Shown here piece by piece: positions 1 through 36,472 of a stretch of DNA of 64,000 nucleotides (within the stretch, counting starts at the first letter, position 1; each line of letters starts with the position of its first letter). The notes below the pieces were generated by a model that worked only from the letters and a program-made list of their open reading frames with translations, did not search any database and was not told the DNA's origin. Both the position numbers and the translations under genes were made by a program. The stretch is from a virus (lineage: Duplodnaviria; Caudoviricetes): positions 3,130 through 67,129 of the IMG/VR virus record IMGVR_UViG_3300021387_000110; one strand, written 5' to 3'.

Positions 1-799
1 TGAATTTGTCAATAACTTCCGGAGCTTTTTCTGCGTCCTCTAATAAAATACAGTAATCGTCCATATAATGACTGTATTCTGTCAGGCCCATTTGGCAGGT
101 CATATAGTTGTCAAGGTCAGATGGAAGATGTATCATTTCAGCCTGACTGGGTTCTACGCCAAGAGGCATACCCAATGTGCTTGGTACTGTATCAATGATA
201 CTGTCTGCCAATCTGCGGAGCTGTTTATTTTCTATCAAATCACGGTGAACCTGTCTAAGGACATCGTGGGAGGCTGATGGAAAGAACTGTTTGAAATCTA
301 TAAGAATGGCCACTCCAGTCCTACCGTACTTCCTATAATGTTCGTGCAGGTCTTTTATTAGTTGCCGTTGTGCAAATTCATAGCCTTTACCTCGTTGACT
401 GGCGCCGTTATTATATATCATCCTGGGCTGATATAGTGGTAAAAGCACTTCATTTGTAAGGGTTTTGTGTATTTGACGGTCTTGAATATGAGGGGCGTCT
501 ATTGGCCGTACTTTACCTCGCTCGTTCAGTCTAAAATGACAATATCTGTGCCATTTATATTTCTGCTTTAAGACTTTTCTACGGTTTTTCGCTGTGATGG
601 AAAATATGTGAAGCTCAAAAAGTTGGGTACTGCATTTCCACCGTACTCCTTTACAGCACTTTTTACCGTAATTATACATCTTATTATAAGTAAATACATC
701 TTCGATACCGCCGACGGAAAGAGTACGAGCCTGCCTATTGGCTTCTCGCTTCGCCTTCCGTCGTTGGTACCTTCTCTCACGACGTTCTTCATTGGTCAA
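1..799 (-). CDS. DGR reverse transcriptase, 5' part (266 codons, runs off window edge; not in ORF track)
   Basis: Manual translation from TTG at 799 (GAGGAG 9 nt upstream): MTNEERRERRYQRRKAKR...RPIDAPHIQDRQIH...NNGASQRGKG...LIDFKQFFPS...GMPLGVEPSQ...HYMDDY (YMDD at 56-67); open to position 2. Confidence 0.95.
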   Translation of the reverse strand, partial: MTNEERRERRYQRRKAKREANRQARTLSVGGIEDVFTYNKMYNYGKKCCKGVRWKCSTQLFELHIFSITAKNRRKVLKQKYKWHRYCHFRLNERGKVRPIDAPHIQDRQIHKTLTNEVLLPLYQPRMIYNNGASQRGKGYEFAQRQLIKDLHEHYRKYGRTGVAILIDFKQFFPSASHDVLRQVHRDLIENKQLRRLADSIIDTVPSTLGMPLGVEPSQAEMIHLPSDLDNYMTCQMGLTEYSHYMDDYCILLEDAEKAPEVIDKF

Positions 800-1025
800 A
801 ATTCTTCGCTCCTCGCACAATTATGGTATAGTAAGGTATCTAAATTGCATAACGACTACACATTGAATACAGTAAACCTCATCCTGTATAATGCACGAAA
901 GCGTCCGTGCAGCCGTGTCAAGGAGCACTTTCGGGCCGAAGCCACAGGAAGTACCTCTCCTCTCAAATGGGGTCATAGGTTCACACATTCGTTACTGTCT
1001 TTTCGACCCACGCAAAATTTGAAAT
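800..1025 (-). ncRNA. Structured spacer 3' of TR (probable part of the DGR RNA)
   Basis: GGC-TTCG-GCC tetraloop hairpin (934-943), TGCACG/CGTGCA stem (892-911), ATACAG/CTGTAT stem; no credible minus-strand ORF. Confidence 0.6.
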
Positions 1026-1126
1026 CGACGGACACGCCATTAGTATTGTTGGCATTGTTATTGTTCGGGTTGCCGTTGTTGTTGACATTACAGAAATTGT
1101 TGCTGTTGTTCTGATTGACCGAACGG
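1026..1126 (-). repeat. DGR template repeat (TR)
   Basis: Non-coding AAC/AAT-rich copy of VR between avd and RT; 17 AAY triplets in the VR reading frame. Confidence 0.95.
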
Positions 1127-1146
1127 CCGAACACACAGAGATACAC

Positions 1147-1608
1147 CTACGACCGACGAGACCGGTCGCTATCGAGAACTGCTTTAATGAGGTTCATTTC
1201 TCGGTCAATTTTCTCACCGAGAGATTGAGCCATACTATCTAAACGCTTGGTTGCTCTTGACGCCTCCAGCGTTTTGCCCTTAGTATCAGTAAAGCAACCT
1301 TGCGGATTTTTCATCATTATGTTATACAGGTGAGCCATTTTTACATCAAGTGCAGAAACAGCTCCTAATGCCTCCAGAAGGTGTCGCTCACGATATTCCG
1401 CTTTGACTTTATCTGTCGGCAATACTTTATTAGCCATTTCACAATGGTCAATAACGTCACTCGCTCGGGCACATATCTCCGGAGCAAGTAATCTACCGTA
1501 TCTCGCCGAAACTCGGGAGAGAAATTGGTACGTTTCCGTAAAAATCTCATTGGCAACATTTACGAACTCCGCCCTACTTAAATTTTGCTTGGACTTTAAT
1601 ACAGACAT
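1147..1608 (-). CDS. avd: Accessory variability determinant (Avd-like four-helix-bundle protein)
   Basis: 153 aa, helical, MSVLKSKQNLS start and ...ANKVLPT...YRERHLLEA pattern typical of Firmicute DGR Avd; position between target and TR. Confidence 0.85.
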   Translation of the reverse strand: MSVLKSKQNLSRAEFVNVANEIFTETYQFLSRVSARYGRLLAPEICARASDVIDHCEMANKVLPTDKVKAEYRERHLLEALGAVSALDVKMAHLYNIMMKNPQGCFTDTKGKTLEASRATKRLDSMAQSLGEKIDREMNLIKAVLDSDRSRRS

Positions 1609-1680
1609 AACAATTTTTCTCCCTTATTTCAGCTTGATTAGGCTTCGCTGGCGCTCAGCCGGACTTTGGTCGACTTTGGA

Positions 1681-3480
1681 TTAGACACGGAGAGCGACGG
1701 ACACGCCATTAGTATAGTTGGCATTGTTACCGTTCGGGTTGCCGCTGGTGTTGACACTACAGAAACCGTTGCTGTAGTACTGACGGACCGAACGGTTCCA
1801 CCAATAAGTGTTACTATCCGTCTGTTCCGACTTAGCCTTAACCTTACTGTTACCAGCAGAATAGTACGCATACTGTGCCTGATGACCGTCCGCGGACTCA
1901 TAAGTATTGGAATAAGTATGAGCACCGTGAACTTCATACTCGGACAACAGTCGCATATAGTCTACCGTAGCTGTAACATTGGCTGCAACAGAGCCAGAAC
2001 CTCCGCCCACGTTATCAGAATACGTGGTCATCGGCTTCAATACAGCTCTCAGGTCAGCCGGCAGAATAGCCATCAACGAACCTGAAACAGGGTTAGAGGT
2101 CGTTGCAGGAGTAGCATCCCCGTTAGGCGTATCAGTAGCGCCGAGGTGTGTATTACGCATTTTGGAATTCTTCCAACCGCCGGCATTGGTACTACTATCG
2201 TTCATATTGGTACCACCAGACGACGGTCTAATACAAACATCTGTACCATTTGTAAGAGCCGTTTTGAATGTACCAAACGTGATACCGTTACCCTCAGTAG
2301 CCGAGTTGTGATTAAACCCGAGAATAAACAGACCAAGCTGACGGTTACTAAACGTAACGCCGCAAGCGGTACCATTCAAAGTAATCATCTTGACATCACC
2401 GACGGACCAGTAGTTGGCACCTTCGTCATCAACACTTTCGATTGCGTCCCAATCGTTGTTGTTGAGAACGGCGTCAATATCCTGTCCTGTAACAGTAATG
2501 CCAGTCAGCGTAGCGGAACGTGTTCTACCATCGTGGTGATAGGAGACTTCTACCGAAGTATCGGTCGTTTTCAACCTCGCCGGCACAAATGTCAGGTCGT
2601 TATTATCTACGACACTCGTGGCACCGCTGGTATATGTAGCTGTAACTACCATACCTGTCGGGTCAAGGGATTCGCCAGAAACATAGGCCATCTTCGTAGG
2701 CGGAGTAGTAATAGCAATACTAACGAGCGGGTCATCATCTTCACCAACTGTGATGTTAGTAGTAGTGGTAAGGGTATCACCGCTATCACTAACATAGGAG
2801 ATAGTGATAACCTCAGTTCCGAGTTCGTCTGTGACAGTAGGACTAAACGTCCAACCTGTAACAACCTCGGTATCTCCGTTAGAACGGGTACCCGTGACAA
2901 CACATCCAGTCATATCAATGGCCTCACCAGACTTATAGTTGGTCTTTGTAGGCGGAGTGGTAACAGCTATGCTGTCAATGTAGTTGGTAACGGTCACACT
3001 CTGGTTGTAAGTAGCGGAATAACCGTCCTCAGAATAGGTGATAGTAACCGAAGTGGTACCAACAGTCAGCACCGTCGGACTAACAGAGAATTTGGCAGGC
3101 TCGCTGTTATACGACACATAACGCTGGGCACCGTTGCTGTAATTGACGTAGACCGCAAATCCTGCGAGGTTAACGCTCTCACCCGCTTTGTACACAATCT
3201 TAGTAGGCTGCGAAGAACGGGAGATTGAGGTAACGTGAATACCAGAGGACGACGGAACATTGACAACTACAGGAGAAAATCCGTCAACACCGGACGGTGC
3301 CGTGTAGGTACCATTAGCGTTAATACTCTTGGACTCAATGACAGGCGTACGGCCTGTGGGGATATTATCAATGGCGTCTGCCATCTCACTTACTTTATAG
3401 GTAGTCGCTGACCCATTTTTGCCACGAATAGACGCCGCAATAGCCTGGATATTGGACTCCTCATAAAGTTTCTTTGACAT
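1681..3480 (-). CDS. DGR target protein: three bacterial Ig-like (Big_3-type) repeats plus C-terminal DUF6273/C-type-lectin-like variable domain
   Basis: Three SI-x-(T/S)-x-PTK-x-x-Y-x-x-GE repeats; C-terminus YWWNRSVRQYYSNGFCSVNTSGNPNGNNANYTNGVSVALRV encoded by VR. Confidence 0.9.
   Translation of the reverse strand: MSKKLYEESNIQAIAASIRGKNGSATTYKVSEMADAIDNIPTGRTPVIESKSINANGTYTAPSGVDGFSPVVVNVPSSSGIHVTSISRSSQPTKIVYKAGESVNLAGFAVYVNYSNGAQRYVSYNSEPAKFSVSPTVLTVGTTSVTITYSEDGYSATYNQSVTVTNYIDSIAVTTPPTKTNYKSGEAIDMTGCVVTGTRSNGDTEVVTGWTFSPTVTDELGTEVITISYVSDSGDTLTTTTNITVGEDDDPLVSIAITTPPTKMAYVSGESLDPTGMVVTATYTSGATSVVDNNDLTFVPARLKTTDTSVEVSYHHDGRTRSATLTGITVTGQDIDAVLNNNDWDAIESVDDEGANYWSVGDVKMITLNGTACGVTFSNRQLGLFILGFNHNSATEGNGITFGTFKTALTNGTDVCIRPSSGGTNMNDSSTNAGGWKNSKMRNTHLGATDTPNGDATPATTSNPVSGSLMAILPADLRAVLKPMTTYSDNVGGGSGSVAANVTATVDYMRLLSEYEVHGAHTYSNTYESADGHQAQYAYYSAGNSKVKAKSEQTDSNTYWWNRSVRQYYSNGFCSVNTSGNPNGNNANYTNGVSVALRV
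1695..1795 (-). repeat. DGR variable repeat (VR), ending in GC-rich IMH-like GGCGTGTCCGTCG
   Basis: 89/101 identity to TR (offset 669), all differences opposite TR adenines. Confidence 0.95.
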
Positions 3481-3500
3481 TTCTTTTCACCTCCTTTCTA

Positions 3501-3734
3501 TTAGTATTCGGTATTGTCAGCGTCAAGACTGGCAATATATGAGAAAACCGCACCGCCTGTTACCAGACCGGGGTCGTTCTCTGCAACCGAGCCAGGACTC
3601 TCATAGACCAGAACTCCTTGCGAATTGAGGCGAGGAACCTGACCAGAAGAGCCAGCAGAAACAGGTAATTGACTGGTTTTACCAACCGCGGTGTCAATTT
3701 CCTGGCCAGTATAACTGGAATGATAGTTAGCCAT
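3501..3734 (-). CDS. Small virion-associated-like protein
   Basis: YHSSYTGQEIDTAV, GLVTGGAV and C-terminal ADNTEY motifs resemble tail-fibre N-terminal/adaptor peptides; coupled to neighbours. Confidence 0.55.
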   Translation of the reverse strand: MANYHSSYTGQEIDTAVGKTSQLPVSAGSSGQVPRLNSQGVLVYESPGSVAENDPGLVTGGAVFSYIASLDADNTEY

Positions 3735-3918
3735 TACTTACCTCCTGTGTCAAAATGAATTTTTCGTTAAGCGAGGTATAAAATACCTTGCTATCGGATG
3801 TCAAAAGAGCGATTCCTGACTGGGACCCTTTAAGGCTTTTCAGCGCCGCCAGTCTAAATACAGGTGATTTTGACTTGGAGACCCTGTCCAGCAACATAAA
3901 CTGCTTGAAATTCGGCAT
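3727..3918 (-). CDS. Hypothetical small protein (LLTSDSKVFYTS motif)
   Basis: ORF overlapping neighbours; start refined to ATG at 3918. Confidence 0.55.
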   Translation of the reverse strand: MPNFKQFMLLDRVSKSKSPVFRLAALKSLKGSQSGIALLTSDSKVFYTSLNEKFILTQEVSNG

Positions 3919-3919
3919 A

Positions 3920-4129
3920 TTATTCGCCCCATTCCCAGGTATCGTCACTCTTTAAGAGGGCAACCTCGAGTTTTGCGGTGTAAACAATACTACCAGCACT
4001 CAAAGTACCCACGAGGCCCTTGACCTCAGTCGCAGAGCCCGTCTCCGGGACTTCCTCTTTCGTGTCTGCGAATACAGTACACACCTTTTCATCGGTAGTA
4101 CCGCCGTCGATAGATACGAGCTTAATCAT
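3920..4129 (-). CDS. Hypothetical phage protein (69 aa)
   Basis: AGGAGG RBS, ATGA overlap with upstream; FADTKEEV...AGSIVYTA pattern recalled from Firmicute phages. Confidence 0.7.
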   Translation of the reverse strand: MIKLVSIDGGTTDEKVCTVFADTKEEVPETGSATEVKGLVGTLSAGSIVYTAKLEVALLKSDDTWEWGE

Positions 4130-4153
4130 TGAGCTTTACCTCCTATAAAATAT

Positions 4154-5512
4154 TTATTTACCTTTACGTTTCCATACTCGTTCAAGGGCATAACGCACGG
4201 CGTCAATGTTGTGGTTATTCGCATCCGGGTATCCGCTGATAACTTCGTCATCTTTGTCCCTTTCATACTCATATCGCACAAATTCCTTGAGGGTTTCCGG
4301 GCAACGAACAGGGTCAATATAGATATGGTTAAGAGATTGTAACCACTTCATACTATAATTTACGCTATCGGGGCCTTTTTCAGCGGGTCGACAGCCATAT
4401 CCACCGTAGGATTTGTAGTCTGAAATAGATTTTGGCTCGGCACTGTCCGCTGTAAGTATTTCATCGGGCTCCATAAAGTGTCTTTGGCGTATAAAATTAC
4501 CATTCTCACGAGAATTTATAAGAAATTCCTCGGTATATATCTCTTTTTCGTGGTACAAGGCGTCAAAGGTATTTCTATTAGTCTGCTTATTGACCCTATA
4601 TTCAGCAAAAATATAGAGATTTCTGCGGGCAATATCAAAATGTACCTTGTTAAATGCAAACGGGTCAGGGAACCAACCCCAGTCAAGGCCACTGTAAATA
4701 TGGTCAAAATGACTGATAAATTCGTCCGACATATACATCGGTTCAACATTCTCAAAGACATTACCGCCTGTGCCGACAGGAATACCAAGGTATTCGTGTT
4801 CATACGCTCTTGGATTTGTCGCTTTCAAGTCCATAGCCTCGTCAATGAACGCTTGACCAAGCCACTCCTCAGGTACATCAAGATATGTATTCTTGACTAC
4901 GAGGGTATTTTCTCGGCCCATAGCGTCTATGGCGTATTGATTTGCCCAATTCATATTAGAAATGGGCGGGTTAAAGCTACGGAAATCCCAAAATTTGGTA
5001 CCACCACGCATTGTTGACTGTAATACCTTACGAATTTCTTTCTCGCCAGAGAATTGGTCAAGCTCCTCGAACCAGGTAATGCCGATATAACCAAAAGGCA
5101 GCTTAATAGACTTGACTTTATTAGGGTCATCTAAGCCGAAAAACAGAATTTGCTGGCCGGTAGGTAAAAATACGATAGGATTTGCAATACTTTTGGGTAT
5201 TTTGAAGAAAGGAGTTAATCCCATCTTGTCAATACCCCATACCATCTGGGACCAAACGCTGTTTTTCATTGTATTACCTACTTTTCTGAATACAACCGCG
5301 TGAACTTCGGGATTTTTCATCATCAAAGTAGGGATTACCTCTGAAATATTCGAGGATTTTGTAGAGCCACGACCGCCTGAAAAGACGTAGTGAGTATGTC
5401 CGTGGTTAAAGATGTCCTCCCAAACGGGTTTATACATAGGAATAAGGACATCTTTCATATTAACCCGAACTTCGGGGGTAGCGACTTTGACGGGTCTCCT
5501 CATTCTGGGCAT
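4154..5512 (-). CDS. terL: Terminase large subunit (PBSX-like)
   Basis: Walker A GGRGSTKS, Walker B ITWFEE, coupling FNPP, nuclease GLDWG and NHNIDAVRYA. Confidence 0.95.
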   Translation of the reverse strand: MPRMRRPVKVATPEVRVNMKDVLIPMYKPVWEDIFNHGHTHYVFSGGRGSTKSSNISEVIPTLMMKNPEVHAVVFRKVGNTMKNSVWSQMVWGIDKMGLTPFFKIPKSIANPIVFLPTGQQILFFGLDDPNKVKSIKLPFGYIGITWFEELDQFSGEKEIRKVLQSTMRGGTKFWDFRSFNPPISNMNWANQYAIDAMGRENTLVVKNTYLDVPEEWLGQAFIDEAMDLKATNPRAYEHEYLGIPVGTGGNVFENVEPMYMSDEFISHFDHIYSGLDWGWFPDPFAFNKVHFDIARRNLYIFAEYRVNKQTNRNTFDALYHEKEIYTEEFLINSRENGNFIRQRHFMEPDEILTADSAEPKSISDYKSYGGYGCRPAEKGPDSVNYSMKWLQSLNHIYIDPVRCPETLKEFVRYEYERDKDDEVISGYPDANNHNIDAVRYALERVWKRKGK

Positions 5513-12910: not shown

Positions 12911-13858
12911 CTACATAGAAATCTTCCCAAACTTTTTCTCGATTGCCGATATGTCCCCTTTGTAGAATACCAGGATATTCTGATGATGGCGACCTATCTT
13001 CCTTGACCTATCAAAATTCTTTGGTGCTCTTATAGGTAAACTCCCAATAGCGTTCTCAAGGATAATCTCATTGTAGTAGTGCAATTCGCAGTGGTCACGA
13101 ATTATCTGAATAGTATCAGGTACAAATCCTCTGTAATAGCTCTTGTCCATCTCGCTCACACTCGCCCGAATTTCTGATACCACAATGACAAAAAAGGAAT
13201 TTGGCTCTAATTTCTGGGCACTCTTATACAGAATGGATGAATATTTATGCAGGAAGTCCTCATAAGTGGGTAAATTACTGAGGTCATTAGGATAGCCAGT
13301 GTATTTTTCAAGATTATAATAAGGAGGACAAGTAAATACCATATTAAACGTACTGACTAACCGGTCTAACTCTACCTCACTATCATCACAACACCAATCG
13401 GCATTACCCTGTATACCTGTGTATTTGATACGAACATTCGCAAATTGGGACACATTCATTTCTGTTTGTACTCCTGACAAATCTATGCCAAAATAATGTC
13501 TACCCAACACAGCGGCTACGGTACCTCTCACGCAGCCGCCAGCAAACGGGTCAAGCACTCTATCACCAGGTCTACTAAACCACTTATACATAAGCTCACA
13601 GAGAAACGGGTCAAACTCACTCACGGATTCAGCCTCTTTGGCGTCTGCACCCCTCGCACTAAACGTATTGGTAGGGGTAGCATTGAAACGCTTTACATCA
13701 CGACCCTTTGTAGAGTCCCTATAAAGGTTCTCCCACTCGTCTTTTCTTCTCTGCCAGTCCCACGATATGGTATTTAATATCGAAAACGGTGGCCAACCGA
13801 ATTTAGCGTGAAGTAAACTACTCGGCACTCTTTGTGGCCCTACATCAAATAAAGGCAT
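12911..13858 (-). CDS. Amino (N6-A/N4-C) DNA methyltransferase-like protein
   Basis: SAM-binding VLDPFAGG and catalytic-like TCPPY motif; FDPFLCELMYKWF pattern of a phage MTase family. Confidence 0.85.
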   Translation of the reverse strand: MPLFDVGPQRVPSSLLHAKFGWPPFSILNTISWDWQRRKDEWENLYRDSTKGRDVKRFNATPTNTFSARGADAKEAESVSEFDPFLCELMYKWFSRPGDRVLDPFAGGCVRGTVAAVLGRHYFGIDLSGVQTEMNVSQFANVRIKYTGIQGNADWCCDDSEVELDRLVSTFNMVFTCPPYYNLEKYTGYPNDLSNLPTYEDFLHKYSSILYKSAQKLEPNSFFVIVVSEIRASVSEMDKSYYRGFVPDTIQIIRDHCELHYYNEIILENAIGSLPIRAPKNFDRSRKIGRHHQNILVFYKGDISAIEKKFGKISM

Positions 13859-14952
13859 TAGCCGTACGCCCTCCTTAATAACTTCTTATTGACCAGCTTC
13901 TCGTATGCCTTAGATTTCTCTATGGGATAGAACATATAATTATCCCAAATCTCTTGCAAACTTTCACCAGGTGCGCCGGTCTCTTTGATAATGGTTCTCT
14001 CCAATATCTCAAAACAATGGATGTAATAGTCCTCATTGTATTCTACTTTACCTGTGTCAGCGAGCCACATCCACTCCATACAGCACTTCCAACAACAGCC
14101 GCACCTATCAGGAAAAACTCTCACATTGTATTTTTCCTCAGTGCGATGTTTCCAATGTGCCCTAAATCTGAATGGACTCATACACGATACGGACATACCG
14201 AAAAGCTCCCAATCTTCTTTCAGCAGGTCAAAAGTATCTGCATTAGATTTAAGAGGTATTTCTATATCGAACTCAGGTAACACGGACTGTATGATTTTAC
14301 GATATGCGTCCCACATTTCTATACAGTCACCAGCACACACCTCAAACTCATTCATATCCAATGTGGACTGACTGAAATTGCCAAACGCTATAACAGGCGT
14401 ATAACCGTTATACAGACAGTAATGAATAGCCCCATTGGCAATAATATAATTTTTAAGCGGATGCTCAATAAAATCGTGTTTGCCTTCCAGCTTGATATTA
14501 TCTATATGAAGGTCACAGCCCAGATATTTCGCTATCTTCGCTGCCGCCTTCTTCTCGTCCCCGTATGCTTTATTAACGCCGGCCGCGTGGTATAGATGTA
14601 CTTTATAACCTTTCTTGATATAGTAATAGGCACAGGCTGCACTATCTTTACCGCCCGACAGGCAGACAGTAATCTCTTTGGGACGAGAAGTAACAGGAGT
14701 TATAGGCGGCAGGTTCAGAGGCTTCTCAACAGGTGGATTAAAGCTGACAAGGTGCTCCTGTAAAATTCTGCATAGCGGTGCAAATGATGTATCAACCCAG
14801 ATAACATCATCAAACATCCTGTCCGAATCTGAGATATACGCATATAACCCCTCCAGGATATTGAATACCCTACTCTTGTTCTTGTAAACGTGAAGAACCC
14901 TCTGCACCGATTTTCGCCATCCCTTCCAAAGCACTCTCAAGGCGATTAACAA
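13858..14952 (-). CDS. QueC-like PP-loop ATP pyrophosphatase with N-terminal extension
   Basis: LSGGKDS PP-loop; SC...CGCCWKC zinc motif; true start may be GTG 14907. Confidence 0.75.
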   Translation of the reverse strand: MLIALRVLWKGWRKSVQRVLHVYKNKSRVFNILEGLYAYISDSDRMFDDVIWVDTSFAPLCRILQEHLVSFNPPVEKPLNLPPITPVTSRPKEITVCLSGGKDSAACAYYYIKKGYKVHLYHAAGVNKAYGDEKKAAAKIAKYLGCDLHIDNIKLEGKHDFIEHPLKNYIIANGAIHYCLYNGYTPVIAFGNFSQSTLDMNEFEVCAGDCIEMWDAYRKIIQSVLPEFDIEIPLKSNADTFDLLKEDWELFGMSVSCMSPFRFRAHWKHRTEEKYNVRVFPDRCGCCWKCCMEWMWLADTGKVEYNEDYYIHCFEILERTIIKETGAPGESLQEIWDNYMFYPIEKSKAYEKLVNKKLLRRAYG

Positions 14953-21507: not shown

Positions 21508-21888
21508 CTAAAACAACTTTCTTGCTTTGGTCTTTTTGGTAATCTTTGGCTTTGGTGGTAGTTTTATTTCAGGTTTCTTTTCTTCAGGTAGCCCGAGAAG
21601 TTTTCGAGCCTTAGTTTCTATCCACGGTTCATCAAGAGGCAGAAATGCTCCCGAGCTACCATCCCAATCTTCAAAACCTTTTCTGAATGGTACCTGTTTC
21701 TCTATGTCCGGGTACTTATTCTGCAACTCAGCCAACTCCACTGCCCACGCTGACCATTGATGGTCTGTAACTATGTTATCATCCATTCGATAGTATATGT
21801 AGGAGTGGACAAGCATTTGGAGTCGGCGTTGTTGTATCTTTTCGGCAATCTTTAATTCTTCGCCGCTGAATATGTCATACAGTTTCAT
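21508..21888 (-). CDS. Stand-alone NAD-dependent DNA ligase N-terminal (Ia)-like domain
   Basis: RLQMLVHSYIYYRMDDNIVTDHQW...ELAELQNKYP matches HxYxYYxxDxPxxxDxxYD...LxxLExxxP; no KxDG adenylation domain. Confidence 0.75.
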   Translation of the reverse strand: MKLYDIFSGEELKIAEKIQQRRLQMLVHSYIYYRMDDNIVTDHQWSAWAVELAELQNKYPDIEKQVPFRKGFEDWDGSSGAFLPLDEPWIETKARKLLGLPEEKKPEIKLPPKPKITKKTKARKLF

Positions 21889-22225
21889 TGTTTATACCGA
21901 ACATCAGCGATAAGGTCTTATCAAACGCAGCCATTTCTATGGGATTTAATATGCCGATGAAATCACCTATCTTGCTGACATCTACTGTGGTTATTTGTTC
22001 GCATAATATCTGTCCAGGACGGTCTCTTACATAGCACTTAGGGTGAAATGCAAAGCCGTCGAGCTTAGTTGTTAAAGGACACACGGTAATGATTGCAGGG
22101 TTTGTTCTTCCCCATCCGGTGTTCACTACAACACACGGTCTTAAATTGCCTTGAATATAAGAGTTCGGGTCAAGAGGTAAGTCTACCCAATATACTCTAC
22201 CCTTTTTGTAGAACATTTGGTACAC
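21875..22225 (-). CDS. PemK/MazF-family protein
   Basis: GRVYWVDLP...QGNLRPCVVV...VCPLTT...LCEQITTVD. Confidence 0.8.
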   Translation of the reverse strand: MYQMFYKKGRVYWVDLPLDPNSYIQGNLRPCVVVNTGWGRTNPAIITVCPLTTKLDGFAFHPKCYVRDRPGQILCEQITTVDVSKIGDFIGILNPIEMAAFDKTLSLMFGINNETV

Positions 22226-30258: not shown

Positions 30259-30284
30259 GTGGCAGACTTTTTACAGTCTGCCAC
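30259..30284 (-). terminator. Intrinsic terminator after beta clamp
   Basis: GTGGCAGACT/AGTCTGCCAC 10-bp stem then TTTT. Confidence 0.85.
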
Positions 30285-30290
30285 CTATCT

Positions 30291-31385
30291 TTAATCTTCT
30301 GCCGTAGCGACAATCTGAATGACGTTGCCGTCCTTCATCTTGATGGCGTTATCTTCGCCGTACTCAATCTCCACCATATCGGCAGAGCTTGCTTTAACCT
30401 GGGCTCTGAACATTTCGATGTCGAGCGGGCACGTAAATGCCTTGAAGTTGTTGCTCTCAGCATACGGAATGGTCTCGCTACCCGTGGTCTTCTTTGACGA
30501 GATAGTGACACCCTGCTGAATGAATGTGATGGTAATCACGTTCTTATCATACGGACTTACGAACAGCGCCAGTCTGTCGAGCGCCTGTAACAGGTCTGCT
30601 CTGGGCACTTTACAGGAGCTATCAAACTCCTGCTCAAGGAAACTCGTGATAGGACCTACCTGAAAATCACCGATACAGTCCATCTCGGCGCCGTACACAC
30701 AGCACTTAGGTGAGATAAACGCAATCACGCCTTCCTTAATCCATCTGTGTACTCTAATATCCTCATCGGAGAACACAGCGAGCAGGTCAATCATTTCGGG
30801 ACTGAGCAACGCAGGCTCTTTCAACACCGGAATGTTGATACCACAAATCTTGTAGGAGTCGGACGTGATAACCTTGTCTCCGATGTAGTAACCCTTGTAG
30901 CACATCACATCGCTGTCAGCAGGTGCGAGAGCTGCCTTCGCCGTATTGAGAATGAGCTTCATTGTTGAGAGCTTAACCGACTCCGAACTGAACTCCTCAG
31001 GCGGAATGGGCAGACTATTCAACGGGTCAGGATATTTAACAGGCTCACCTTCTTCATCGAGAGGGAGCTCCATCTTATAGTGTCCGTTGCCATCAATGTT
31101 AAGAACACCATCGACAACCTCTAACCTAACGGACGTACAGGTCATCTTGGATATGAGCTTCGAGAACTGTTCTACAGGAACAACCACATAGAAGTCCTCG
31201 GCGTCAATCTTATCCTCTGTAATATACAGATAGTTGGTGGCGTCAGTGGTAATAAGTGTGAGCTTATTCTCCTTCCACTGAATTGCCATAAGACTTGTGA
31301 GCGGTATCATCTTATTGCAGGATGCACCTTTCACAGCTTTTGCTACCATAGACTGGAGCAATTCGACGGTCATAGTTAATACCAT
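30291..31385 (-). CDS. dnaN: DNA polymerase III beta-type sliding clamp
   Basis: 364 aa; LTLITTD, VITSDSYK, LLQALDRLALF; three-domain length typical of beta clamp. Confidence 0.85.
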   Translation of the reverse strand: MVLTMTVELLQSMVAKAVKGASCNKMIPLTSLMAIQWKENKLTLITTDATNYLYITEDKIDAEDFYVVVPVEQFSKLISKMTCTSVRLEVVDGVLNIDGNGHYKMELPLDEEGEPVKYPDPLNSLPIPPEEFSSESVKLSTMKLILNTAKAALAPADSDVMCYKGYYIGDKVITSDSYKICGINIPVLKEPALLSPEMIDLLAVFSDEDIRVHRWIKEGVIAFISPKCCVYGAEMDCIGDFQVGPITSFLEQEFDSSCKVPRADLLQALDRLALFVSPYDKNVITITFIQQGVTISSKKTTGSETIPYAESNNFKAFTCPLDIEMFRAQVKASSADMVEIEYGEDNAIKMKDGNVIQIVATAED

Positions 31386-31386
31386 T

Positions 31387-32283
31387 TTATTTGTCCTCCT
31401 TTTTATATGAACCGCTTATGATTTTAGGAACTGCGTGTTCCCAATTGATAGAATGATGAATACGCTTGTGCCGTGAGCCTACTGTATAGAGCTTCACAGA
31501 CGATGGATTACTTATTACGGTAAAGAATGATTTTACATACGTGCCAGCGTTCAGATACAACTCCGTCATACCGCCTGAGTTAGCCTGTGTCTGTGTCTGG
31601 TCAAGCGACATATCAGAAACCGTAAAGAACAAATGTCCTTTTGAACCCAAGTTTACATAGGTATTTACATCTTCATTGATACGTCCTATAAAATCAAATC
31701 TATTCTCGGTCTTGCAGAAAAAGGAATTCATAGCTTTTCGTGCCAGCTTATCTTTGAACACCTTACTCCCACTACCGCCTATGAAGTCACCCGTCTGTGC
31801 AAATGCGACTGTTAAGGCGCCTGACGTTTCAAGGAACTCAATCATACAATCAACAACCGCGTCAAAGTCTTTGAGATACCACGAACCAAATTCACCGTTC
31901 TCTTTAACGAACCTCTGACGGAAGTTTGTATAGTCATCATCAAGCTCCAAGAAATACTTGTACCCTAACTTCTCAGCTATATCGAAACAGGCATTACGAG
32001 CATAAACGATTGCCCGTCTATCTGCTCCTCTGTCTATCGTATCGAACTCGGTAGACTTTTTCAGCTTGTCAAACATTTCCACATTCTCGTGACCATACAT
32101 ACGATAATACTCTTCGGCTTTCTTATCCTCATTATCTATAACAAGAACAATCTTGCCAGTATAACCAGCATTTTTCAATGCCTGTATCGTATATACTTTT
32201 TCAGGTCGTCCGTGTGTGAGAATGAAGGCTACAAAATCATTTCTCATTTCCTGCAATCTCTCCGCTCTGTTCAAGGATGGCAC
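31387..32283 (-). CDS. GT-A fold glycosyltransferase, copy 1
   Basis: FILTHGRP, IVYARNA, FLELDDD, GRINEDV; start likely MRNDF (32247). Confidence 0.8.
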   Translation of the reverse strand: MPSLNRAERLQEMRNDFVAFILTHGRPEKVYTIQALKNAGYTGKIVLVIDNEDKKAEEYYRMYGHENVEMFDKLKKSTEFDTIDRGADRRAIVYARNACFDIAEKLGYKYFLELDDDYTNFRQRFVKENGEFGSWYLKDFDAVVDCMIEFLETSGALTVAFAQTGDFIGGSGSKVFKDKLARKAMNSFFCKTENRFDFIGRINEDVNTYVNLGSKGHLFFTVSDMSLDQTQTQANSGGMTELYLNAGTYVKSFFTVISNPSSVKLYTVGSRHKRIHHSINWEHAVPKIISGSYKKEDK

Positions 32284-32635
32284 GAATATCCTTACTGAGC
32301 TTCACATAGCCCTTTGCTATGGCGTCATCAATATCCAAGATAACCAAAGCACTATCTTCCATAAGCTCCTGCATTTCTGCTGAGGCGTGGGCATAATAGT
32401 CAGCTATTTTGGCATATCTGAATACTATATGACGAGCAGCCGCAAACCGTAAAAATTTCTTCTCCTCTTCGGTCACACCGGACTTATTGATTTTGGCAAG
32501 TAATTTACTGTACTTTCCATAATCAATTAGTTCCTCTAAACGAGGCTTATCTTTACTGGGAACATACTGAGGCACTTCTACCTTTTTAGTATAACGCTTA
32601 TCCTCAGGCTGCTGTTGTATGTCAAACAACCGCAC
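32237..32635 (-). CDS. Conserved small partner of phage glycosyltransferases
   Basis: YTKKVEVPQY...AAARHIVFRYAKIADYYAHA...SALVILDIDDAI; sandwiched between the two GTs. Confidence 0.75.
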   Translation of the reverse strand: MRLFDIQQQPEDKRYTKKVEVPQYVPSKDKPRLEELIDYGKYSKLLAKINKSGVTEEEKKFLRFAAARHIVFRYAKIADYYAHASAEMQELMEDSALVILDIDDAIAKGYVKLSKDIRAILEQSGEIAGNEK

Positions 32636-32637
32636 AA

Positions 32638-33507
32638 CTACACTTCCTTTCTATATGAACTGCTGATTATCTTAGGCACACAACTCTCAGGCGTAGTCGT
32701 TACAGCCCAATCTTTTCCGTATCGCATAATATTAGATGATGGATAAGCAATAATTGGCATAAAGTTTACTTTGAACTTACCAAGCTTACGATATACGTCA
32801 CTATTGCCGCCATCAACAACGCCCTCACTCATACGAATATCAACTTGTAACGGTAAAAATTGAAACCAGACTTGATTTTTTATGGCACCATCAATAGACG
32901 TTATCAAATCCTCTACCATATTAAGTCGCCACTTAACTTCATAATCTGTATTCCTTATAAAAGCCTCTGCACAAAGACGCTGACGAGGATTTTCTTTTTC
33001 AAAATTATCAACACCGCCGATATATAAATTACAAAAGCCAAGTCCCATACAGGCAACTTTCTTTGTAATTACATATTCAACACACAGGTCAATAATTTCA
33101 TCAAGACATCCTTTAGGACTATAAGACTTCAACACTCCATTATCAGGTACCCTTACTCTAATATTAGTGATGTCGTCATCCAACATCATAAAGGCGTCAT
33201 ATCCGTTACACAGTGCAATATTTTCTATGGCATTACGAGCAAACACCGCAAAGTTAGGTTCGGGAGAACTCAATCCTGTCTCGGTACGACCTATAAACAC
33301 ATCTTTGTTAAACCAAGCAACGTCTTTATAGGTTTCCATATACTCAGAAAAAGTTTCATCCTGGTCATCTATTACAAGATATATTTTACCTGTATAACCA
33401 AGTCTACGCAAAGTTTCCAGCGTTAATTGATTATGCGGTCTACCGTGTGTAAGTATGAAAATAGCAAATTTTCTTTTATGCCGAGTATATCCGTCTCGGA
33501 ACTTCAT
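32638..33507 (-). CDS. GT-A fold glycosyltransferase, copy 2
   Basis: FILTHGRP, AVFARNA, FMMLDDD, LNMVEDL; paralog of 31387-32283. Confidence 0.8.
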   Translation of the reverse strand: MKFRDGYTRHKRKFAIFILTHGRPHNQLTLETLRRLGYTGKIYLVIDDQDETFSEYMETYKDVAWFNKDVFIGRTETGLSSPEPNFAVFARNAIENIALCNGYDAFMMLDDDITNIRVRVPDNGVLKSYSPKGCLDEIIDLCVEYVITKKVACMGLGFCNLYIGGVDNFEKENPRQRLCAEAFIRNTDYEVKWRLNMVEDLITSIDGAIKNQVWFQFLPLQVDIRMSEGVVDGGNSDVYRKLGKFKVNFMPIIAYPSSNIMRYGKDWAVTTTPESCVPKIISSSYRKEV

Positions 33508-35804
33508 ACGTCAATCACCTCTCCATACCAACATTTGGTAATCTCAACATCACAGTTGATAGGCATTTCAAGTATCTGCTCGGCAGCCTTGGACATTGTC
33601 TGGGCTAATAATGCGGCGCACTCTCTGGCATTCTCTTCAGGACACTCCGCTATGATTTCATCGTGAACGGGAATTAACATTCTGAACCCAAGCTCCTTGA
33701 GCCGTTCATTACTGTGCAACTCTATCATAGCCAACTTGGTGAGGTCGGCAGCACTGCCTTGAATACGAGCATTGACTACCTTAGTAGTATCTTTATCCCG
33801 TGTGTGGTCTATAATCCATAAACCCTCAGCGTTTGCAGCCTCGAATACTGACCGCTTCTTCATAAAAGGAGCCTGTCGTACACGATTAACCCACTTACGC
33901 TGTAATGCCTCAGGCACCTCTGTACTCAACTCGTCATCATCAAATGCCAAGGGGTCATCATCAGGAGCAACGCCGTCTTTCCATACCACCTCATAGTCAG
34001 GCAACATCATAGACGGCAATCTTCTCTTACGTCCACAAACTGTGGTGACAAAACCCTTTGTCTTTGACATAAGGATGGAATCCTCTTCAAACTGCTTAAT
34101 AGCAGGAAAACCTCTGAACACGCTATCCTTAATCTGCTGAGCCTCTTTGGTAGATGTACCAAGCTGTTCGGCTATACTATCTACACCTCTGCCATACAAC
34201 ACGCCGAGCAGAATTGTCTTTGCCTGTGAGCGACGTTCTTTACCTGCCTTATTCACAGTGCCGTCAGGTCTAAATTCCTGACAATCTTCATACGGCTTAT
34301 TGAACGCCTTACTGGCAATCTCACAGTACAAGTCTTTGCCCTGCATAAACGTGTTATACATCTGTGGGTCGCCCTGCTTTCTACACAGAGAAGCCAAGCA
34401 CTTAGGTTCCTGCTGGGAGAAGTCACTCGACATCAAAACGTACCCATCACTCGCTCTGAACATCTTACGAATATCCTTATTATGCGAGGGAATGTTTTGA
34501 AGATTGGGGTCACTACTACTCATACGCCCTGTATCAGCGCCGTACTGGTTAAACTTACAATGTATTCTGCCGTCTTTCTCATTTACACACAGCGGCAGCT
34601 TATCAATGTAGGTGTTAATCAGTTTACCAACACCACGATACTCTAATAAGGCTCTTGTGAAATCATTGTCAATCTTGGACAATATCTTTTCACCGGTGCC
34701 TCTGGGAGAGTCCTTGTCAACAGACTTTACACCCATAATATCGTACAGAACGATGGCAACCTGTGCAGGTGAATCCAGATTGATAGGGTCAGAAAGTTTG
34801 CAGTTAGGATTTTTAACCCTATATGTGTGTATCTCTTCCTTGTACATACCAAGGATTCTATACACAGTAGCGGTCTTTTCTTCGAGGAGTTTATGATACA
34901 CCTCGTGAAGATTATCGGCAACATTAAAGTCAAATGCCACGCCCATATCTTCCATATCAGCAACGACTTCAACGCAAGGCATTTCTATATTATGAAATAC
35001 CCAAGCTACGTCCTGTAGCTCACGCTTTTGGCACTCGCTGTCATCGGGCGTCAAGAACGGACGTTGATATTCGTACAACTCATAGGTAATAATCGCATCG
35101 TGAGCCGCATACAGATAACCGAGGTTGATGGGAACCAAATCAAATGATATGCCCTCAAACAATTCTCCAAACCTCGCCTCATCATCAGCGCCGTCTGTAC
35201 AGTATTTCTTATGCAAGGCTTTCAAACCATTATTACCACTACCTTCATTCTCATTGAGAAGTCGGGCAGCAAGATAGCAGTCCCACGAACATTTTAGATA
35301 TACATTGATACCAGAACGTAAAAACCTAATATCGAAACAGGCATTGAACATCACAACGAATGTGTCTGCCTCTCTCAAACGGTCAAACTGTTCGTGGAGT
35401 ATATTAACAGGTAGCTGATTATCTACCCGAATGCCTGTAACATAAGAACGGTGATTTACAGGCACATAGGCAGCTTTGCAACCTGGTGTATATATACATA
35501 TTCCAACGAGCTTGTCAGTCAGAGGGTCAAGCCCTGTCGTTTCTGTATCAATAGAGATAATCCCTTTACATATTGCCTCTGTGATGTAACTCTGTAAAGC
35601 ACCTTCATCACGAATTACAATAAAATCATCCCTATATTTACCGAGATTTTTCTCTACGAGAGCCCGAGCGGTATTCATCCTTTCTACGAGGCCCCCGCCA
35701 CCTTTTACAGTAGCGGGAGCCCTTGTAGCACGAGCGTTAGCCTTCTTGGCAACTTTGGAATCCCCGGCTCTTCCTGCTCTCTTGGGAATCTCAAATAAAG
35801 GCAT
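33504..35804 (-). CDS. polA: Family A DNA polymerase with 3'-5' exonuclease (Leu at E. coli 762 position)
   Basis: ExoI IDTETTG, ExoII FNACFD, ExoIII YAAHDA; motif A SDFSQQE, motif B RSQAKTILLGVLYG, motif C VHDE. Confidence 0.95.
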   Translation of the reverse strand: MPLFEIPKRAGRAGDSKVAKKANARATRAPATVKGGGGLVERMNTARALVEKNLGKYRDDFIVIRDEGALQSYITEAICKGIISIDTETTGLDPLTDKLVGICIYTPGCKAAYVPVNHRSYVTGIRVDNQLPVNILHEQFDRLREADTFVVMFNACFDIRFLRSGINVYLKCSWDCYLAARLLNENEGSGNNGLKALHKKYCTDGADDEARFGELFEGISFDLVPINLGYLYAAHDAIITYELYEYQRPFLTPDDSECQKRELQDVAWVFHNIEMPCVEVVADMEDMGVAFDFNVADNLHEVYHKLLEEKTATVYRILGMYKEEIHTYRVKNPNCKLSDPINLDSPAQVAIVLYDIMGVKSVDKDSPRGTGEKILSKIDNDFTRALLEYRGVGKLINTYIDKLPLCVNEKDGRIHCKFNQYGADTGRMSSSDPNLQNIPSHNKDIRKMFRASDGYVLMSSDFSQQEPKCLASLCRKQGDPQMYNTFMQGKDLYCEIASKAFNKPYEDCQEFRPDGTVNKAGKERRSQAKTILLGVLYGRGVDSIAEQLGTSTKEAQQIKDSVFRGFPAIKQFEEDSILMSKTKGFVTTVCGRKRRLPSMMLPDYEVVWKDGVAPDDDPLAFDDDELSTEVPEALQRKWVNRVRQAPFMKKRSVFEAANAEGLWIIDHTRDKDTTKVVNARIQGSAADLTKLAMIELHSNERLKELGFRMLIPVHDEIIAECPEENARECAALLAQTMSKAAEQILEMPINCDVEITKCWYGEVIDV

Positions 35805-36472
35805 TAGAACCTTTCACCGCGACGGTTCGACGGTGTTCTACGCCCCGACGGTCTGTCCTCGTCACCGCGCCTCTGCTCACGGTTACCGCCGCCGTTGTTC
35901 GGAAACTCTCCTGTATCGAGGAAGTCCCTCATTTCATCGGCGCTCTTGTCGAGAACGATTGTGCCAAGCACCTGCGGTGCCTCAGGCAAATCTTCAAGGC
36001 GAGTATCATCACAGCTTACCTCGTAAATCTCGTAGGTAGTGCTTGTGTCACGAGGCTTACCATTACGCTCAATCTCAAAAACGTGGGAAACGAGCGGTGT
36101 GTCTGCTGAGGAATAACGGGCACAGATAGAGGACAACTTCTGTGCAAAGTTTCTACCTCTCTCCCAAATCTGAACTTCGTCCGTGTCGCAGTTGTAGATG
36201 GGAATGTAGAACTTCGCCCTCTGCATATTGTTAGCCTCACAGAACGGGCACTTACTTCTCGGCTCGTCATAGGCGCGTAGACAGTTTACGTACCTCTTCT
36301 TGTCATCGACTGTAACCTCGTGCACTGCAAGACCTTCAATGTCTTCCATTCCGTTGTACATAAAACGGACACGGGCGATGTCTTTGTCGTTCTTCAAGGA
36401 AAAGAACGAACTACTTCCGCTACCGCCGTAATTTTCGGCGTCATTAACTCCAAATCTGGCCAACGTCAACAT
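35804..36472 (-). CDS. Single-stranded DNA-binding protein (gp32-like, zinc-binding)
   Basis: FFSLKND...VRFMY, H...C...CPFC, VQIWERG, charged C-terminal tail. Confidence 0.75.
   Translation of the reverse strand: MLTLARFGVNDAENYGGSGSSSFFSLKNDKDIARVRFMYNGMEDIEGLAVHEVTVDDKKRYVNCLRAYDEPRSKCPFCEANNMQRAKFYIPIYNCDTDEVQIWERGRNFAQKLSSICARYSSADTPLVSHVFEIERNGKPRDTSTTYEIYEVSCDDTRLEDLPEAPQVLGTIVLDKSADEMRDFLDTGEFPNNGGGNREQRRGDEDRPSGRRTPSNRRGERF

Follow-up and report, generated by a model that had tools for sequence, protein, structure and literature searches.

What do two related glycosyltransferases do between the DNA polymerase and the sliding clamp of a phage? The question is raised by an uncultured gut phage, the viral record IMGVR_UViG_3300021387_000110 (67,129 bp, Caudoviricetes), which has direct terminal repeats and a completeness rating of 100%. 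We analyzed its bases 3130–67129 (hereafter the window, 64,000 nucleotides; positions are those of the window unless otherwise stated). The minus strand holds nearly all genes of this genome, and among them two glycosyltransferase (GT) genes, GT2 and GT1, flank a small gene encoding what we call the partner, the three lying between genes for a family A DNA polymerase (PolA) and a DnaN-like clamp. We propose, with moderate confidence, that this cassette is a clamp-tethered, replication-coupled DNA glycosylation module composed of a fixed core (partner and GT1) and a swappable accessory (GT2). We infer DNA as the target, clamp binding and the order of action.

Both GTs are members of the TET-associated glycosyltransferase (TAGT) family, by sequence and motifs for GT1 and GT2 and also by fold for GT1, the one that was modelled. 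They match PF20691 with 119 bits (GT1) and 68 bits (GT2), above the curated cut-off of 27.5 bits, and are the only TAGT matches in the genome. The active-site motif R...DDD...ED(Y/F) defined for TAGT enzymes (bioRxiv 10.1101/2023.12.21.572611) is intact in its R...DDD...ED positions in GT1 (R96, D115-D117, E204-D205) and in GT2 (R91, D110-D112, E199-D200). A preliminary description of this locus, made from the sequence alone, had reported two paralogous GT-A proteins with THGRP, ARN and LDDD motifs around a 132-residue partner, overlapping or abutting polA and dnaN. All of this was borne out: the three are minus-strand open reading frames (ORFs), the motifs occur in both GTs, which share 32% identity over 282 residues (E=3e-37), and the junctions are as close as described below. 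The AlphaFold2 model of GT1 (pLDDT 92, pTM 0.90) adopts a GT-A fold, which GT2 presumably shares given its 32% identity to GT1. The best viral structural matches of the model are TAGT-domain proteins (E=1.6e-33, TM 0.88). The best solved match is TarP (E=1e-5), and other GT2-type enzymes and the nucleoside-binding AvpGT also match, all solved structures being at E ~1e-5 and TM ~0.45.

The Pfam, PHROG and NCBIfam scans covered about 55 window ORFs; for the structural (tail/head) genes at 47.5–64 kb, the 3.1 kb of genome beyond the window and a number of small ORFs, statements of absence come from six-frame family searches only. NCBIfam gave no named family for GT1, GT2 or the partner. Membership of a defence system was rejected, a PADLOC search having returned no match for either GT or for the partner.

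The two GTs differ in how constantly they are found. A partner-based scan of viral contigs yielded 213 relatives, of which 80 loci were kept for gene-order comparison. The partner gene lay directly upstream of a GT1-type gene in 80/80 of these viral loci. About 20 of them shared the PolA ... DnaN replication context, in which GT2-type genes were present between PolA and the partner in 0, 1 or 2 copies. The closest relative, contig L002, matches window 37453-33504 with its bases 1-3956 (96.3% identity) and window 32608-31578 with its bases 3986-5016 (94.9% identity); at the site of the whole GT2 gene it has only about 29 bases, so that GT2 is missing. The GC content of GT2 (37.1%, and 30% at third codon positions) is the lowest in the operon, against 44.3% for the window. 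Among the loci, no relative of GT2 exceeds 35% identity, and GT2 forms the longest branch in a quick tree, the only phylogeny made of the GTs. In this tree the GTs downstream of the partner formed a compact, slowly evolving group including GT1, and the upstream GTs were long-branched.

We also examined pairwise distance matrices. PolA and DnaN co-varied strongly (r=0.88), partner and GT1 less so (r=0.60), and either of the latter with PolA or DnaN only at r=0.33–0.45. Since partner and GT1 thus follow each other more closely than they follow PolA or DnaN, this suggests that they are exchanged as one cassette. A column-by-column comparison of the GTs separated two sets of positions. The donor and catalytic positions R26, D50, D53, K73, R96, D115-117, D205, G237-238 and Y243 (GT1 numbering) are common to both GT types, and GT2 retains R23, D47/D50, K68, R91, DDD110-112 and D200. 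About 20 other positions show a conservation of 90% or more among GT1-type enzymes and are free in the upstream GTs, GT2 included (for example Q163, G165, D166, K183, N203 and Y209, and further T232, Q233, K251, R274, H276, H277 and W281). The latter probably form an acceptor and/or partner surface; GT1 would therefore be the primary transferase, and GT2 would act on a different acceptor, plausibly the first sugar.

Thus, from the insertion/deletion seen with L002, the low GC content, the 0–2 copies in relatives and the divergence outside the donor positions, GT2 is likely to be a late, horizontally acquired accessory. Partner plus GT1, paired in all 80 loci, form an invariant two-gene core. 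The symmetric 'twin' cassette of the preliminary description does not fit this picture, in which one half is constant and the other optional. The two-sugar adduct that it proposed is plausible for the window phage, but only as an accessory elaboration, because the second enzyme is an optional plug-in that L002 does without.

Relatives carry other genes in the same region. Five of them (L013:6344-7333, L016:6371-7342, L018, L020 and L019:8100-9050) have a gene for a radical SAM protein of about 325 aa (PF04055, with a weak SPASM match in L019), which lies between partner and GT1 in four and directly after both GTs in the fifth; its product may tailor the sugar or the base, and the window genome has no homologue of it. 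A protein of about 400 aa without a Pfam family, whose N-terminus resembles GT-B/GT4 enzymes, is encoded downstream of PolA and ahead of the partner (or of GT2) in 11 relatives (L003, L005, L006, L009, L013, L015, L016, L018, L020, L023 and L025), again without a homologue in the window. At L014:3371-5783, two partner+TAGT pairs stand in tandem, the canonical pair being second and the first consisting of a divergent 116-aa partner-like gene and a 269-aa TAGT (PF20691, E=5e-11). An accessory GT can therefore come with its own partner.

The genes of the cassette are closely packed with their replication neighbours. The PolA stop overlaps the GT2 start (ATGA), the GT2 stop and the partner start are separated by 2 nt, the 3′ end of the partner gene overlaps the likely GT1 start by 11 nt, and the GT1 stop and dnaN start are separated by 1 nt. 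For GT1, an ATG at 32247 giving 286 aa is the likelier true start, since homologues begin with MR(N/D)DF. These coupled junctions, together with a first good terminator-like hairpin found only after dnaN and followed by a promoter-like site, make it most likely that the single-stranded DNA-binding protein (SSB), PolA, GT2, partner, GT1 and clamp genes form one transcript. The assignment of the clamp comes from PHROG and from TIGR00663 (E=1e-5), the Pfam DNA_pol3_beta match being weak (E=1.5e-4, under cut-off). Coordinates are collected in the table.

Table. Features of the cassette and its surroundings (window coordinates)
Feature	Position	Strand	Evidence or remark
Family A DNA polymerase (PolA), N-terminus MPLFEI	33504..35804	-	PF00476 E=4e-88
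GT2, putative accessory TAGT-family GT-A glycosyltransferase, 289 aa	32638..33507	-	PF20691 E=1.7e-18
Partner, 132 aa	32237..32635	-	GTG start, AAGGAAG ribosome-binding site
GT1, core TAGT-family GT-A glycosyltransferase, 298 aa from GTG 32283	31387..32283	-	PF20691 E=2.9e-34; phrog_842 E=3.7e-69
Beta-type sliding clamp (DnaN-like), last operon gene	30291..31385	-	phrog_947 'DNA polymerase processivity factor' E=8e-22
Terminator-like hairpin after dnaN, 10-bp stem then TTTT	30259..30284	-	first good terminator-like hairpin
Promoter-like site for next gene, 11/12 positions matched	30243-30215		after the dnaN hairpin
N6/N4 DNA methyltransferase, start MPLFDV, outside the cassette	12911..13858	-	PF01555

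The SSB-like protein of this transcript (window 35804-36472) and its phage homologues have a conserved basic-aromatic tail (..RRTPxxxRxxRF/Y), which replaces the acidic, DDDIPF-like tail of the bacterial type.

What, then, is the partner? The Pfam scan gave no family for it, and among the PHROG profiles it matches the C-terminal third of phrog_620 ('ParB-like partition protein') with E=1.4e-7. It begins with the peptide MRLFDI, continues with a YTxK..PQYxP motif in a probably disordered stretch and then forms a helical core that is conserved. An alignment of 44 partner sequences contained 19 invariant columns, among them Y15, P22, Y24 and P31 in the low-confidence N-terminal stretch and F61, L62, R68, H69, Q89, E93, S95 and D101 in the core. 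AlphaFold2 predicted a core of five to six helices (pLDDT >90 for residues ~30–100) after a disordered N-terminus. Attempts to assign a known fold by PDB sequence search, Foldseek, a wide VIA-align run and ESM Atlas returned nothing usable (Foldseek E >2; VIA-align Z at most 3.9). Long homologues of 236–322 aa mostly have ParB_N (PF02195) followed by the same core; the domain was found in 3/5 long homologues of one scan and in most of 108 longer homologues of another. ParB_N is absent from the 132-aa partner and from the whole genome (six-frame search with a working positive control). The window partner is therefore best described as a ParB-derived core and probably not as a ParB, ParB_N being present in the long homologues and lacking here.

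A profile search of 1.84 billion representative proteins returned 1392 partner-family clusters (50% identity), the core being at the C-terminus in almost all of the best 150 representatives. Genome-contig matches came from Bacteroidota, Firmicutes, Proteobacteria, candidate phyla and a methanogen bin, the binning of phage contigs being unreliable as to host. In temperate phages, such as Lactobacillus phage phi jlb1, HHTV-2 and E. coli phages, a ParB-like gene and a GT1 homologue immediately precede the terminase genes. In E. coli the cassette adjoins trkG in Rac-like prophages, and DNA matching it was found in 1567/5426 complete genomes (~29%), with coverage of 80% or more of the cassette in 889 of them; annotations read ynaK (ParB/Srx) and 'GREB1-related protein' (RefSeq) or hypothetical. 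The remaining 678 of the 1567 genomes hold less than 80% of it, and ynaK and ydaY of the K-12 type look like what is left of a decayed ParB+TAGT cassette.

The MRLFDI peptide of the partner recurs in the window genome as MPLFEI in PolA and as MPLFDV in the N6/N4 methyltransferase (MTase). A strict N-terminal M-x-L-F-[DE]-[IV] pattern occurs in these 3 of 90 minus-strand ORFs, with 0.0046 expected from composition. Full-length PolA homologues of related loci all start with M[AP]LF.., or with QLSLFG (L015) or QQSLFG (L017), and continue with a basic linker; the forms in L015 and L017 are the canonical bacterial beta-clamp-binding motif. The window's own LF peptide has no Q and so fits the QL[SD]LF / QxxLF consensus partially. 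Similarly, most short partners carry LF in their first ~10 residues (MPLFKV, KQLFE, GQLFAT, QFSLF, QFELF), about 12 residues ahead of the invariant Tyr, and the sole MTase homologue among 12 relatives begins with MPLFKM. At the corresponding position, LFGFD or DFGFD is seen in part of the ParB_N-fused partners, the rest having nothing that resembles it. By analogy with such motifs, the partner peptide may bind the phage clamp; T4 alpha-glucosyltransferase co-purifies with the gp45 clamp (PMC13216743).

If DNA is glycosylated, an enzyme making the acceptor would be expected from the known pathways. The absence of a ThyA-type hydroxymethylase, which the preliminary description had reported for the window, holds for the complete 67,129-bp genome: neither ThyA (PF00303) nor a C5-methyltransferase (PF00145) was found there by six-frame searches with working positive controls. 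Tet_JBP (PF12851) was not found by a six-frame genome search made without a positive control, nor by hmmscan of the ~55 window ORFs. Neither ThyA nor Tet_JBP is carried by any of 20 related records, of which 16 have a completeness of at least 90%. We thus rejected both the ThyA-type route, from the genome and the related records, and the combination of TET/JBP with a C5-methyltransferase. The N6/N4 MTase is translationally coupled to a QueC-like PP-loop protein (window 12911-14952), no other 7-deazaguanine genes being seen. Only 1/12 module-carrying relatives has this MTase, so the pair cannot be generally required, and it was rejected as the acceptor-making step.

In the mechanism that we propose, GT1 would transfer a sugar from a nucleoside diphosphate (NDP) sugar to an acceptor on newly made phage DNA, behind the fork. 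The partner would be the obligate helper or adaptor of GT1. Its helical core and YTxK..PQYxP motif would engage GT1 and/or DNA, and its MRLFDI would hook the pair to the phage beta-type clamp, the same hook being present on PolA and the MTase. In temperate phages, ParB_N in place of the LF peptide could be an alternative means of keeping the enzyme on DNA; in partition ParB proteins this domain forms a DNA-sliding clamp. GT2, with the same donor and catalytic site and another acceptor surface, would most likely extend or diversify the first sugar. This reading is favoured by the PF20691 membership, the GT-A fold of GT1, the intact motifs of both GTs, the constant pairing of partner and GT1 (80/80), ParB_N in the long homologues, the LF peptide shared in the genome and kept in relatives, the T4 clamp precedent and an operon shared with SSB, PolA and clamp. 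Characterized phage members of the family act on DNA, namely the T2/T6 enzyme (PMC13216743) and the 5mYOX-associated GT-A enzymes (bioRxiv 10.1101/2023.12.21.572611), and a helper of this origin has a precedent in the ParB-like activator of DNA base dioxygenases, which serves thymine dioxygenases on double-stranded DNA (PMC13229309). The replication-linked DNA hypermodification of the preliminary description is thus partly supported, namely as to the GT family, the paralogy, the embedding in a replication operon and the lack of a ThyA-type hydroxymethylase, its DNA acceptor being presumed.

Several points weigh against a clamp-tethered DNA glycosylation module. We know of no GT-A enzyme that glycosylates a canonical DNA base, and the lack of ThyA and Tet_JBP in all 20 related records leaves the usual hydroxymethyl acceptor apparently without a visible source in this phage. 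Neither the 108 longer homologues nor the 150 best representatives include a fusion of partner and GT, which would have been proof of their contact. The LF pattern was defined post hoc, after the data had been seen, and its conservation in relatives therefore counts more than its frequency in the window. The bare-core partners of L019 and L028 have neither LF nor ParB_N, and since these and some ParB_N-fused partners have no similar peptide, an LF tether is probably common but not universal. GT contigs without a neighbouring 5mYOX or ThyS have been deemed less obviously DNA-directed (bioRxiv 10.1101/2023.12.21.572611), and human GREB1, a TAGT relative, is reported to O-GlcNAcylate a protein, ER-alpha (PMC7968844).

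The example of GREB1 and the failure to find an enzyme making a DNA acceptor both speak for protein O-glycosylation at the replisome, the target being the partner itself, the clamp or another DNA-bound phage or host protein. A clamp or ParB tether would then merely co-locate enzyme and target, and the invariant Y15..P22.Y24..P31 motif, in a probably disordered stretch of the partner, would be a possible substrate. We consider this unlikely: all characterized phage TAGT members act on DNA, the LF peptide is also carried by an undoubted DNA-modifying enzyme, the MTase, the temperate-phage pair occupies a place just before the terminase genes that is typical of DNA-modifying genes, and the diversification of accessory GTs resembles DNA-glycan arms races. 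A non-DNA, non-protein acceptor, such as a nucleotide or nucleoside or an envelope polymer like teichoic acid, glycosylated, for instance, to dampen a host defence signal or prevent superinfection, appears very improbable. It would account for the solved folds closest to GT1, which include nucleoside-binding AvpGT and, with the other GT2-type enzymes, TarP, a prophage wall-teichoic-acid GlcNAc transferase. These matches are however at fold level only, and TarP is also the top PDB match for phage GT-A enzymes that modify 5-hydroxymethylcytosine (5hmC) (bioRxiv 10.1101/2023.12.21.572611). Moreover, the partner is ParB-derived with a PolA-like N-terminal peptide, the cassette is most likely co-transcribed with SSB, PolA and clamp, and no membrane or secretion features were seen.

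Within DNA as the target, the nature of the acceptor has to be chosen. The absence of known primers and the movement of the core alone among unrelated small phages imply either an ordinary DNA constituent or a priming that is unrecognized or supplied by the host. In the latter case, a hidden phage or host enzyme would make 5hmC, 5-hydroxymethyluracil or another hydroxylated base, which GT1 and GT2 would then glycosylate. About 12 genome ORFs of 150–290 aa without family assignment leave room for such an enzyme, as does the QueC-like PP-loop protein coupled to the MTase. So few module-carrying relatives have the MTase that this is improbable; moreover, none of the 16 records at least 90% complete carries ThyA or Tet_JBP, and the two genes of the cassette travel by themselves to small temperate phages and to Rac-like prophages across many phyla. 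This mobility argues for a self-sufficient pair. Partner and GT1 might thus place a sugar directly on a canonical DNA constituent (e.g. an exocyclic amine of an ordinary base) that has not first been hydroxymethylated, guided by a sliding clamp, which would be the phage beta clamp here and a ParB_N clamp in temperate phages, a chemistry that we put forward tentatively as a possibility within the proposed DNA glycosylation module.

The rest of the window contains a replication and repair set (clamp loader, RecA, HD protein, RecU, Cas4-like exonuclease and SSB, further primase, DnaB, a DnaD-like initiator and a SNF2 helicase) as well as lysis and packaging genes. At window 21508-22225, two genes overlap, one for a MazF/PemK-like toxin (PF02452, E=1e-17) and a small one encoding a DNA-ligase N-terminal Ia-like domain only (PF22745, E=1e-27). 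A 389-aa ORF (window 1-3480 / genome bases 2780-3949 region) runs past the left edge of the window, beside a 599-aa Big_3/DUF6273 protein and downstream of the terminase genes. In the 3.1 kb that the window does not include there appear to be the start of a long ORF, two small ORFs and a retroelement reverse transcriptase.

Sugar-decorated DNA is a main escape of phages from restriction and CRISPR systems, and to our knowledge every understood pathway of DNA glycosylation first makes a hydroxymethyl or hydroxyl base. The module described here joins members of a DNA-glycosylating enzyme family, without such a priming step, to a dedicated ParB-derived helper that is always present, and it is very common. 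Solitary TAGTs of undefined function occur in 288/753 GT-encoding phages (PMC13216743), and ~65% of GT-containing contigs have no neighbouring 5mYOX or ThyS (bioRxiv 10.1101/2023.12.21.572611). To these the window adds a clean natural insertion/deletion of an accessory GT in near-identical genomes, a separation, residue by residue, of donor positions common to both GT types from positions specific to GT1, and a quantified cross-phage test of the PolA/MTase/partner peptide; this shared peptide makes the idea of a clamp tether directly testable. If DNA is modified, either the acceptor chemistry is new or a priming enzyme is hidden, and the module would be the second case, the ParB-dependent thymine dioxygenases being the first, in which a ParB-derived protein serves a DNA-modifying enzyme. 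Should a canonical DNA constituent be the acceptor, this would represent a new DNA-modification chemistry, distributed over phages of many phyla and ~29% of the complete E. coli genomes.

Compared with known systems, the window enzymes share Pfam family, GT-A fold and motifs with the T2/T6 beta-glucosyl-HMC-alpha-glucosyltransferase (HMC, hydroxymethylcytosine) and with the 5mYOX(TET)-associated GT-A enzymes. Paralogous GTs within one phage are also a trait of TAGT systems, and sequential sugar addition is known from the T6 and subclass I pathways (PMC13216743; bioRxiv 10.1101/2023.12.21.572611). However, the known TAGT enzymes act on 5hmC or glucosyl-5hmC derived from a dCMP hydroxymethylase or from a C5-methyltransferase plus TET, sources not found here, and unlike the window cassette they have no dedicated ParB-derived partner. 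Human GREB1 contains a related GT domain in a large eukaryotic protein, with neither a ParB-type partner nor a replication context. The pair 5mYOX176 + ParB176 (PMC13229309) resembles the cassette in that a ParB-derived accessory is encoded beside, and needed by, a post-replicative DNA base modifier. 5mYOX176 is however a thymine dioxygenase, whereas the window enzyme is a glycosyltransferase, and ParB176 needs its ParB nucleotide-binding domain, which the window partner has lost.

The closest likeness is to the ParB(YnaK-like)+TAGT cassette of temperate phages, with the same partner core, GT1 type and gene order and a GT identity of 40–52%. There, the partner has an N-terminal ParB_N and the pair belongs to a late gene unit beside packaging genes, whereas the window cassette has a short LF peptide only, a location in the replication operon and an extra GT. 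As to the tether, T4 alpha-glucosyltransferase was reportedly linked to the gp45 sliding clamp by Sommer et al. in 2004, a finding confirmed in PMC13216743. It is similar to the module proposed here as a DNA glycosyltransferase tied to the phage sliding clamp, coupling modification to replication. In T4 it is the enzyme itself, a GT-B-fold protein with 5hmC as its acceptor, that binds the clamp, whereas the tether proposed for the window would consist of a separate adaptor and a bacterial-type beta clamp.

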